This document shows, one piece after another, positions 3,001 through 5,976 of a DNA stretch of 5,976 nt. This stretch comes from a virus (Duplodnaviria; Heunggongvirae; Uroviricota; Caudoviricetes), in IMG/VR virus record IMGVR_UViG_2690316115_000013, positions 1 to 5,976 of that record. One strand, given 5' to 3'. The position numbers are program-made. Every line of letters begins with the position of its first letter. The stretch's first letter is position 1.

Positions 3001-5976
3001 CTCCTTTAGTTTCAGAATTCAAATTGTCTTGCCCGCAGGCTTTTCAGCATTGGCATGGCCCGCTGGATAACGGAACTTGACATGTCGAGACGTGTTACCT
3101 CCCTCAGTAGCGCGTCTCTGTTCTTCGTCACCATGTAGATGGTCTCAAACGCAATGTCATACAGCTTGTTCGTGTATGAGGAGTTCAGCTCTTTCATAAT
3201 GGGATACAGGTGTTTGCTGATGTCCTGGGCTTTTTCCATCCAGAGCTGCATGTAGCAAAGGAGGATGATTTCTTCGGCTGTGAATTGTGGCTGAATCTGC
3301 GGCTGCTGTTCGGTTGGTGCTGTTTTTCCCTGGCTGAAATAGCAGTCTTCCAGTTTTTCGAATACCTCCCACGCCCGATCGGTTTCGAGCATTTTTGCGT
3401 GACGGGCTGCGCCGCGTTCTGTCCAGAGGATGAGGGAGCGGGCATTTTTACCAACTAACCCGATTGTTTCGGGTCTGTTCTTAAACTCGCGTAATTCGTT
3501 TTTTTCAATTTTAAAGTAATGCTTTCCGGGCATGAATCGCGTCGTGTTGTTCAGAAAGTTATCAGAAATGTTTTTGATTTTTGTTCCGTAAAGGTGAGCC
3601 AACAGTTCAGTAGTAATTACGGGGATCTGGTTATAGGTAACAGGGGAAAGGTTTTCGACAGAAATTTGAACAGCCATAATGACCTCGCGTTTCGATAATT
3701 TTTACCTCGCCACCGTCAGGTGCTAATCATCGTGGTGGCGAACTGTGCGGGGTTAGCACTACCGGTCGAAACATCCGGCGAGCCTTTCGGCTCCCCCACA
3801 CAGCCCGCCATAAATCGCGAATGTGACTGTGCTTAGCGCATAAAAAAACCGCCAGCGCGGTTATGCACCGTTTCGATATCCGGGGTGCTAATCCCGACGC
3901 CAGGTTTTGCTGGCGCGTGAGGAATATAGCCCCGAACACGCGACGTTGTCAAACTGATGGCATTGCAGATCCCTACGCAATGTAACACTATGTGTTATAC
4001 ATTAATAACGGAACAAAAAATGCGCATTTTTAAAAACGCCTGGTTTGAGCGATTTGCACGCAAAACAAAATATCCGACCAATCACTGCGCGAAATTGTTA
4101 AACAGGCTGATAACGGGCTTATCTCAGCAAACCTGGGTAACGGCGTTATCAAGCAACGTCTGCCACGAGTCGGTGGCGGCAAATCTGGCGGTTATCGCAC
4201 AATCATTTTCTATCGCGTCGGCACAAGGGCCTTTTTCGTATATGCATACGCAAAAAATGAACGTGAAAATATAACCGCTACTGCGGAAAGTGCATTTCGG
4301 AAGGCGGCTCCTCACGTACTCAATCTAACAGATGAACAACTGGCACAACTGATTCTACAGGGTCAGTTTACGGAGGTACCCAATGAGTAAAAATTACCGC
4401 AGTGATGCGCTTGCATCCGTACATGAAATGATGGAATCGCTTCATGATATCGGCGCAGTAACGAAACAGACTATGCGAGAATTCGATGAAACTTGTCTCC
4501 AGCCAGCGCCGGTAATGTCTCCGGAAAGGATCCGTGCACTGCGCGAACGAGAGCATCTGTCTCAACCTGTTTTTGCCAGATACCTCAACGTCAGTAAAAA
4601 CCTGATATCAGACTGGGAACGTGGTGTAAAACGGCCGGGAGGTGCCGCTCTTCGCCTTCTTTCAGTCGTAGAGAAAAACGGGATCCAGGTAATATCATGA
4701 TACTCCAATACAACAAAACCCGCCGAAGCGGGTTTTCATTAGAAGCACCTTTAGTTTTGCTGTTCTATTTTAAGCTTGATAGTTTCATACAAAACAATAG
4801 TTGCGCCTGTTTTACATAATTCCCGGCTGTCATACGCACGAGACCAATAACACAACCAGTTCTCGAGATCTTCTCGAGTATAGGTTTTGCAGGCCAGTCC
4901 CTCTGCCATTTCCACGATTTCATCGCCTGGTGCTGTTAACTCATAGCCATTCAACAACAAGAAGACATAACCAGCCATCATAGCTGTTCGTTTGTTTGCA
5001 TTAGCAAATGGATGATTCTGAATCAGACTTTCAATCAATACTGATGCCAGTACAAACATGTCATTAGTCTGTTCATACCATCGAACCATGCTGGGACGAG
5101 ACTGAGAAGAACTTAAATTATCAACACTCAGCACACTAACAGGTTCATCTGGTGTTTGAAGCTCAATTAAAAGGCGATTAATTTCGGTAAGATCATCAAA
5201 CGAAAGGTAGTGCACTCCTTCAACAATCTCAGCCATAGAGCACAATACCCATCATTACACTTTTGAAAGTTCTTCCATTGCCTTCTCGTAACGAGAAAAA
5301 CCGAAATCGAAAGCATTTTTCACCTGCTCACGATGAGTGCAATTTTCATCGATAGCCGGGCGCGGAGCTGCCACAACGCTTTTATCGCGAGGGGGAATAG
5401 TCAATCGCGGGTGTTTTTTTAGTGCGTAGCTCATTGGGTGTACCCTTACTTCTCCGTCCTGTTCTTTAACAAAAATCAAGTCAATACAAAATTAGTCAGG
5501 CTAATGTTGTTAGCATAGCCTAATACCAATCGTATTCACAACCACAGTAAGTGAAAAAACCCGCCGAAGCGGGTTAAGTGCGGGTGCGTTGAGGATGCCT
5601 GACACATCAGAGGTGGCGAGGGATTTCTCCCTCGCCTGGTCTCTTACTCCTCAGGTTCGTAAGCTGTGAAGACAGCAACCTCCGTCTGACCGGTTCGGAT
5701 TCGTACCTCGCAGAGGTCTTTCCTCGTTACCAGTGCCGTCACTACGACGGTAATACAGATGACGATCAGGGCGACTAACATCGCCTTTTGCTGCTTCATA
5801 GCCTGCTTCTCCTTGCCTTTCGGCGCGTAAGAGGCTAACCTACATGTGTCTAGCATGAAATTGGCCTCAGATTAATGTTAGGCGTCTTGCAGGACGCGTA
5901 ATGTTAACTGGGGCTTTTCTCTGTCTGCCTTACGGTGGCATGCCCGAGGCAGACAGCCTCAAGCACCCGCAGCAAT

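Follow-up and report, generated by a model that had tools for sequence, protein, structure and literature searches.

The window, the whole 5,976-nt stretch of DNA that we analysed, contains a toxin-antitoxin operon. The operon lies within the nin region of a decaying lambdoid prophage from E. coli or Shigella, in which an IS600 end at positions 1–107 truncates rusA. The toxin gene lies upstream of, and overlaps, a gene for a helix-turn-helix (HTH) antitoxin, the arrangement found in the PF06296 family of toxins. The initial annotation had placed the N-terminus and the body of the toxin in different reading frames, and translation of both frames confirmed this (Table 1). From its ATG, frame 0 reads 15 toxin codons, MRIFKNAWFERFARK, and then 69 out-of-frame codons before it stops at TAA 4272–4274. 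The other 108 toxin codons occupy the −1 frame, which is open from 4049; from 4064 it reads NKISDQSLREIV...GGGKSGGYRTI...AKNERENI...TEVPNE and stops at TAA 4388–4390. At the junction lies a run of four A residues, with a further AAAA at 4067–4070. Adding one A to the first run gives a repaired toxin of 123 aa.

The antitoxin gene is intact, as first described. Its HTH_3 match covers residues 50–94 and is thus C-terminal, leaving about 45 N-terminal residues outside the HTH. The start of this gene (ATG 4383) overlaps the toxin stop within the sequence ATGAGTAA. When this clade was aligned with the O157-type clade, to which it is 84% identical, the longest uninterrupted stretch of unchanged positions 5' of the toxin start codon was the block TGTAACACTATGTGTTATA, a candidate for the operator or the −10 region of the operon. 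It contains the inverted repeat TAACAC (3983–3988) / GTGTTA (3992–3997), which was spotted by eye and is backed by the conservation across clades. A gapless inverted-repeat search of 3900–4030 for arms of at least 7 nt returned only AAAATGC/GCATTTT, spanning the start codon, and a consensus scan found no + strand sigma-70 promoter upstream of the toxin. The only strong promoter in that scan was on the − strand (3952..3923) and is part of a divergent isrK/C4/antirepressor unit. Beyond the antitoxin stop, a GC-rich palindromic hairpin (AAAACCCGC-loop-GCGGGTTTT) has a stem bordered by A and T runs at both sides; it is likely a two-way terminator common to the toxin-antitoxin operon and the convergent doc operon. 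Rfam matches to rsmX and istR at 4712–4802 were below threshold and coincided with this hairpin, and were disregarded.

Table 1 Features of the toxin-antitoxin operon in the window.
Feature	Position	Strand	Basis
Conserved block with inverted repeat; candidate operator or −10 region	3981..3999	+	Conservation between clades; putative function
Toxin codons 1–15, frame 0	4020..4064	+	Translation
ORF actually read from the toxin ATG: 84-aa product, 15 native codons	4020..4274	+	Translation
Lesion: A4 run, A5 in intact alleles (1-bp deletion)	4062..4065	+	Allele alignments
Toxin body, codons 16–123 and stop, −1 frame	4064..4390	+	Translation
A>C turning GAG into GCG (E89A, dead toxin body)	4284..4284	+	Site variable among haplotypes
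GGAGG, putative Shine-Dalgarno site 6 nt 5' of the antitoxin ATG	4372..4376	+	Sequence; putative function
Intact HigA-2-like antitoxin, XRE-type HTH, 105 aa	4383..4700	+	HTH_3, E 1e-7
GC-rich palindromic hairpin 3' of the antitoxin stop; likely terminator	4715..4736	.	Terminator scan (− strand)

Judged by its sequence, the toxin once repaired is a member of PF06296 (PF_RelE, HigB-2-type) in the RelE/ParE superfamily. It matched the Pfam profile over its full length (1–120 of 120) with an E of 2.1e-45 and a score of 154.2 bits, where Pfam's gathering cut-off is 27, a similarity that is far beyond chance; NCBIfam gave no model matching the repaired toxin. The full-length match holds only after one A is added. 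A single continuous ORF of ~120–130 aa is expected of the family, and here the domain is split over two frames, so the window holds a PF06296 pseudogene and not a working member. The homologs are single ORFs of ~123–124 aa; there were 1922, and among the best 120 nearly all cover 98–100% of the query. In an alignment of homologs, the N-terminal block was the most conserved stretch of the protein, with K5, N6, A7, W8, F9, E10, R11, F12, and K15 invariant among 43–44 sequences. An AlphaFold model of an intact allele, P0001 (pLDDT 80.9, pTM 0.76), placed strand 1 at residues 2–6 and helix 1 at residues 7–15, with pLDDT ~91. When this model was compared with the PDB by Foldseek, the best six matches were all HigB2 (probability 0.98–1.0, TM 0.46–0.59), followed by HigB1 of M. 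tuberculosis. The intact allele is thus predicted to adopt the RelE-like (BECR) fold, with moderate likeness to the solved structures.

The characterized member of PF06296 is HigB-2, a ribosome-dependent A-site mRNA nuclease whose gene comes first in its operon (PMC11980606). The HigB-2/HigA-2 pair of Vibrio cholerae (PDB 5JAA, 8A0X) gave the best solved matches for both of our proteins: HigB-2 for the toxin (sequence E 0.005; fold probability 1.0, TM 0.46–0.59) and HigA-2 for the antitoxin (E 7.9e-8, residues 45–99 against 39–93). The two systems share the toxin-first gene order and, after repair, a full-length PF06296 toxin, although identity between the toxins is just ~20–25%. The V. cholerae pair is located in the superintegron, whereas the copy here is in a prophage. 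The chief difference is the broken toxin ORF here.

Comparison with orthologous loci showed what the intact gene looks like. The E. coli alleles HCP4S3_I4 and SCU-104 have one extra A at the junction and an annotated 123-aa toxin, and A5 alleles at >99% identity to the window are likewise single ORFs. Together with the PF06296 match, these natural alleles show that the junction lies at the A-run and that one A restores the 123-aa toxin. The four-residue run (A4) is nevertheless the common state: of the 38 complete E. coli genomes in this group of alleles, 30 have it, the O104:H4 outbreak lineage among them, and only six encode an intact toxin. Phage PhiR12_3, the single match in the Phages collection, and further NCBI assemblies have A4 too. 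The initial annotation had allowed for a sequencing error. Homopolymer miscalls are indeed common as artefacts, but nothing specific to this locus points to one. The 30 complete genomes were sequenced independently in many laboratories, and A4 occurs on at least three distinct SNP haplotypes, often with other lesions. These genomes, the isolated phage, and the further assemblies refute a sequencing error, and there is practically no chance that sequencing or assembly has hidden an A5 run and an intact toxin.

The A-run deletion is one of at least five different lesions that break the toxin over two prophage clades. A deletion of C4305 has been added to A4 in O104:H4, cM8a, and AST198, and is found on A5 backgrounds as well. 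Strain 23CRST047 has delA4287 and delC4305 together, while in NMBU-W12E19 an IS66 element is inserted within the toxin and the rest of the module has been removed. The sister clade has an independent frameshift of its own, G4 to G5, which at least 53 of its 168 genomes share. Substitutions were also seen at invariant or nearly invariant toxin residues (F12L, A13T, and E89A). The last of these is present in the window, and 90% or more of 43 homologs retain E89. We regard the second lesions and the changes at conserved residues as signs of relaxed constraint on the toxin. Among the haplotypes read, run length was only partially associated with the SNP at 4081. All four combinations were seen for sites 4081 and 4284, and likewise for the A-run and delC4305, so recombination or recurrent mutation has occurred; as a result, a single and a repeated origin of A4 look the same in these haplotypes.

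The same alleles bear on phase variation, another suggestion of the initial annotation, in which slippage at the A-run would toggle the toxin at high frequency. The lesion does lie in a homopolymer, the population contains A4 as well as A5, and the frameshift of the sister clade is in a run of G residues. The tract is just 4–5 nt long, however; known contingency tracts are ~7–8 nt or longer. Tract length was also uniform within every group of genomes with identical match statistics, each being all A4 or all A5 (for example, all A4 in O104:H4 and in FORC/NCCP). Many A4 alleles also have delC4305 or IS66, so that a regained A would leave the gene broken, and some have changes at conserved residues. 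The short tract, the uniform groups, and the second lesions leave phase variation without support, and we consider it highly improbable.

Could the broken gene still yield an active toxin? One route would be an internal start giving an N-terminally truncated protein, such as the 112-aa CDS in RefSeq. PGAP annotates this CDS in strain ML35, which has A4 and no second lesion, as a 'RelE/ParE family toxin', and similar fragments are annotated elsewhere. Their annotated starts are ATT or ATC, though, with the 112-aa CDS beginning at ATT 4052. There is no Shine-Dalgarno sequence before 4052, and the frame of the toxin body contains no ATG, GTG, or TTG start and no ORF of at least 30 aa in the ORF listing. 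The product would moreover lack the nine invariant positions of strand 1 and helix 1. We see hardly any likelihood that such a fragment is an active toxin.

The other route would be ribosomal frameshifting, leaky or programmed, at a site such as A_AAA_T (4067–4071), which would give functional toxin at a reduced level and so an attenuated module. The −1 frame is already open upstream of the junction, and a −1 slip of the lysine tRNA at A_AAA 4067–4070 would re-pair perfectly to give ...ARKTKISD..., altering only the variable residue 16 (N16T). Unprogrammed −1 slippage can suppress 1-bp deletions at the percent level in E. coli (PMC10861913). The locus resembles dnaX and the IS3-family transposases, which use programmed −1 frameshifting, in having overlapping frames at an A-rich site and in needing a −1 shift to restore the protein. 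Unlike them, it has only the tetramer A_AAA instead of an X_XXY_YYZ heptamer. Upstream, a Shine-Dalgarno-like stimulator is lacking too. We also rejected downstream RNA structure as a stimulator: the segment 4072–4140 has a folding energy of −9.2 kcal/mol and is less stable than its shuffled controls (z +1.24). Nor is the two-frame layout conserved: among the 120 best of 1922 homologs almost all lack it, as do the single-ORF alleles at >99% identity, which argues against the conserved programmed frameshift that the initial annotation had allowed for. Finally, A4 alleles have been frameshifted a second time and altered at invariant positions, which would not be expected were a frameshift product still in use. 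Because the perfect slip at A_AAA is possible, trace amounts of active toxin are conceivable for alleles with A4 as their only frameshift, including the one in this window. As an account of the locus, however, frameshifting to a functional toxin is improbable.

The core reading of the initial annotation, a toxin inactivated by a one-base frameshift in an A-run beside an intact antitoxin, is supported by these comparisons. The frameshift is a real mutation and an ordinary first step in the decay of a toxin-antitoxin module, a pattern that is already known. Very probably, the locus is a true toxin pseudogene in a HigB-2/HigA-2-type type II operon of a decaying lambdoid prophage, in which the toxin has decayed first. 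The loss of one A (A5 to A4) cuts codons 1–15, which form a strand and a helix in the model, off the ribonuclease body. Ribosomes starting at the toxin ATG would then make the mostly nonsense 84-aa product, and presumably no active toxin. The antitoxin would still be translated from its own GGAGG site and may still repress the operon through the conserved palindrome, and it could neutralize related toxins of other prophages.

In our analysis this state matches the usual decay of chromosomal toxin-antitoxin modules, toxin first and antitoxin later. Inactivation of the toxin before loss of the antitoxin is a published pattern in Photorhabdus (PMC13617665), and E. coli is rich in orphan antitoxins (PMC10790755). 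In such eroded type II modules the toxin has likewise been hit by small indels, truncations, or insertion sequences while the antitoxin persists. The present locus does not differ from them in kind; what stands out is the recurrence in two prophage clades and the presence in the O104:H4 outbreak lineage.

We also considered whether the antitoxin is being kept by selection, either for anti-addiction or immunity against related HigB-2-like toxins or as a regulator of neighbouring prophage genes. Eight of the haplotypes examined have the antitoxin allele of the window. All eight encode the same antitoxin protein, and its gene differs by two silent changes only. In these eight the toxin shows five amino-acid changes along with three 1-bp indels and two silent changes; the counts are small, with Fisher p values of 0.04 and 0.09. 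Despite the many toxin lesions, NMBU-W12E19 was the only locus retrieved that lacks an intact antitoxin, and in the sister clade the two G5 loci retrieved both have it annotated at full length (318 nt). Its own Shine-Dalgarno site looks strong, and the exact protein is very widespread, occurring in 3653 blocks of the protein collection. Seven genomes contain the module in two copies; in one of them, strain ST130, one copy is G5-frameshifted and the second has the length of an intact allele. Immunity and regulatory roles have been discussed for orphan antitoxins (PMC10790755).

The same observations could have a simpler source. Divergence since the loss of the toxin is tiny, so an invariant antitoxin is expected by chance as well, and the sample (p 0.04–0.09) has diverged too little to prove selection. 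Because antitoxin loss becomes neutral only once the toxin is dead, a time lag before it is expected without selection (PMC13617665). In NMBU-W12E19, moreover, IS66 has removed the rest of the module. On sequence grounds a domesticated antitoxin is plausible, and simple toxin-first erosion would account for the same data; we rate selective retention as a minority possibility, less probable than erosion though well ahead of the ways of making toxin discussed above. Doubtful, and a step below selective retention, is a mixed state in which the A4 allele leaks trace N16T toxin, leaving the module attenuated with antitoxin in excess, and/or the antitoxin is kept against HigB-2-like toxins of related lambdoid prophages such as those of the O157-type clade, whose toxin is WP_001217944.1.

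Toxin-first decay of the operon also has a practical side. RefSeq names the fragments 'type II toxin-antitoxin system RelE/ParE family toxin' and gives them ATT or ATC starts and no pseudogene flag. With the lesion hidden behind such starts, toxin-antitoxin censuses will count too many modules as functional, also in the O104:H4 outbreak strain. Our literature search found no paper citing the RefSeq protein accessions of this locus. The finding is one more case of toxin-first decay and of small scientific weight, and the detail it adds is the recurrence. Should selection be acting on the antitoxin, the locus would offer a convenient natural test of anti-addiction between prophages.

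Translation from the toxin's ATG at 4020 gave MRIFKNAWFERFARK in frame 0, followed by 69 unrelated codons and a TAA at 4272-4274. The rest of the protein (NKISDQSLREIVKQADNG...GGGKSGGYRTIIFYR...AKNERENI...TEVPNE) was read in the -1 frame from 4064, with a stop at 4388-4390. The two frames meet at an AAAA run (A4, 4062-4065), which is soon followed by a second AAAA (4067-4070). With one A added (A5), the gene encoded a 123-residue protein that matched PF06296 end to end in a Pfam profile search (154 bits, E 2.1e-45; cut-off 27 bits). The translations and the repaired match bear out the initial annotation of a toxin split between two frames at this run, beside an intact antitoxin. 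A perfect 14-nt palindrome (AAAATGC/GCATTTT, 4017-4030) spans the toxin start codon; its arms are adjacent, so a hairpin is impossible.

PF06296 is the 'PF_RelE' family, in which the toxin gene precedes the antitoxin gene and whose characterised member, V. cholerae HigB-2, is a ribosome-dependent A-site mRNA nuclease (PMC11980606). HigB-2 was the solved structure nearest to our toxin by both sequence (E 0.005) and fold (probability 1.0, TM 0.46-0.59), and HigA-2 was the nearest to the antitoxin (E 7.9e-8).

Loss of toxin activity is expected from the lesion: no other block of the family is as conserved as the 15 residues that it detaches, and the body (-1) frame contains no ATG, GTG or TTG start in the ORF listing of the window. 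K5, N6, A7, W8, F9, E10, R11, F12, and K15 were invariant among 43-44 sequences of 58-98% identity. In an AlphaFold model of a natural intact allele (pLDDT 80.9, pTM 0.76), the detached residues formed strand 1 (2-6) and helix 1 (7-15), with pLDDT about 91. RefSeq (PGAP) lists a 112-residue fragment starting at ATT in ML35 (locus L001 4103-4441, equal to window 4052-4390) and a 68-residue fragment starting at ATC in O104:H4 (locus L002 1672-1878). Both are labelled 'RelE/ParE family toxin' without a pseudogene flag, which masks the frameshift; we regard them as annotation artefacts hiding a pseudogene.

Among 5426 complete E. coli genomes surveyed, 217 carried the locus, 38 of them in the close allele group (92-100% identity). 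Nine of the 38 had A4 and were the same as the window over 4040-4110 (FORC, NCCP, ML35, TOE17, cM8a), 19 had A4 with one mismatch (among them the O104:H4 outbreak lineage; the mismatch was T4053C in all three that were read), two had A4 in another haplotype (PS2Canimalfeces12, LZHX12), and eight had A5. Phage PhiR12_3 (from ECOR13) and most of ten extra contexts, located via the exact antitoxin protein, were likewise A4. At least three SNP haplotypes bore A4. In the haplotypes read, all four combinations were seen for sites 4081/4284 and for the A-run/delC4305, implying allele recombination or recurrent mutation. With A4 in 30/38 genomes of the group, in PhiR12_3, in further contexts and on several haplotypes, the sequencing error initially considered is rejected: the A4 frameshift is a real allele.

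AAAAA and a single 123-residue ORF were found in HCP4S3_I4, SCU-104, JNEC-KY203, and 2013C-3033, and a toxin of 123 residues is likewise encoded by the 84%-identical sister clade, which is carried by O157:H7, O26, and O145 prophages. Homologs numbered 1922, and nearly all of the best 120 were 121-130 residues long, covering 98-100% of the query. A conserved programmed two-frame arrangement among orthologs, which would have offered another reading of the split, was therefore not found, and these comparisons indicate that A5 is the functional state of the gene.

A programmed or leaky -1 frameshift could in principle still give toxin from A4 alleles; restoration requires a -1 shift. The sole slippery element is A_AAA at 4067-4070. 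No X_XXY_YYZ heptamer is present, and the predicted fold of the next 69 nt is less stable than those of shuffled controls (z +1.24). Unprogrammed -1 slippage in E. coli suppresses 1-bp deletions at the percent level (PMC10861913), so a trace of near-native N16T product is possible, for alleles with A4 alone. Second frameshifts gathered later in A4 alleles, which argues that this product is not needed. Phase variation, in which slippage of the A-run would switch the toxin as initially proposed, is rejected: a tract of 4-5 nt is below the standard length of known contingency loci, and its length was uniform within each genome group of identical hit statistics.

The toxin gene shows signs of relaxed constraint in its sequence. 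Only 6/38 genomes of the close group kept it intact. delC4305 occurred on A4 (O104:H4, cM8a, AST198) and on A5 (L026), and together with delA4287 on A5 in 23CRST047 (104-residue product). In NMBU-W12E19 (L015), an IS66-family insertion at the equivalent of window ~4153 struck an already frameshifted toxin, and the rest of the module was removed. A4 alleles carry F12L at an invariant residue and A13T at a conserved position; the window has E89A (4284 A>C), where at least 90% of homologs share the original residue. The sister clade has a frameshift of independent origin: a G4-to-G5 insertion (GATAAGGGGGATC) breaks the toxin gene in two in at least 53/168 genomes, as at about 1632 of L005 (E. coli 94-3024), where the antitoxin (WP_000042395.1) is intact. 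In LZHX12 (L011), T>G at the equivalent of window 4096 converts an ATT of the inactivated toxin's body frame to ATG, creating a 98-residue ORF with a canonical start but without the N-terminal 25 residues.

In ATGAGTAA, the toxin's stop codon and the antitoxin's ATG overlap. In all eight haplotypes with the window's antitoxin allele the protein was identical, with two silent sites varying (4682 and 4685), against ten variable sites in the toxin (five amino-acid changes, three 1-bp indels, two silent). This difference between the two genes, though suggestive, is weak (Fisher tests: variable sites per base, p 0.04; damaging vs silent changes, p 0.09), and the antitoxin may possibly be kept by selection. 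It has its own GGAGG site 6 nt before the ATG and so need not fall silent when translational coupling is lost. A block containing TAACAC-TAT-GTGTTA, conserved in both clades, is a candidate operator.

Features of the window around the toxin-antitoxin module
Feature	Position	Strand	Remarks
IS600 (IS3 family), end	1-107		no match to ML35 at this position
RusA ORF	105-326	-	cut to 73 aa by IS600 insertion
Ant	1410-2093		antirepressor
C4 antisense RNA/isrK/c4-a1b1 unit	2146-2344	-	above Rfam gathering scores; precedes Ant
ORF6N	3012-3677		antirepressor
C4 antisense RNA/isrK/c4-a1b1 unit	3731-3929	-	above Rfam gathering scores; precedes ORF6N
Promoter TTGACA-18-TATATT	3952..3923	-	strong; divergent from toxin-antitoxin operon; serves C4/isrK/a1b1 unit
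Candidate operator	3981-3999		19 nt
Antitoxin	4383-4700		intact, 105 aa, helix-turn-helix
Doc/Fic toxin	4751-5245	-	adjoins module
Small ORF	5255-5479	-	upstream of Doc/Fic; no family match
isrK-like match	5554-5635	-	between Doc-associated ORF and hok
hok	5644-5856	-	near toxin-antitoxin module
sok RNA	5794-5968	-

The surroundings of the module, a lambdoid prophage nin region, include RusA, DUF1364, two antirepressor genes, NinE and NinB; window 108-5976 is 100% identical to E. coli ML35. Three toxin-antitoxin modules of different types fall within about 2 kb. The two C4/isrK/c4-a1b1 units are in tandem and resemble P1/P7 immunity units; the third isrK-like match is weak (31 bits vs a gathering score of 50). 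The truncation of rusA by IS600 marks the prophage as decaying.

The toxin gene is thus a true pseudogene, and the HigB-2/HigA-2-type module to which it belongs lies in a prophage that is itself decaying. The observation of a broken toxin is accurate but ordinary; only two points merit passing on, namely that the toxin has eroded repeatedly in different clades and that its RefSeq annotation misleads.
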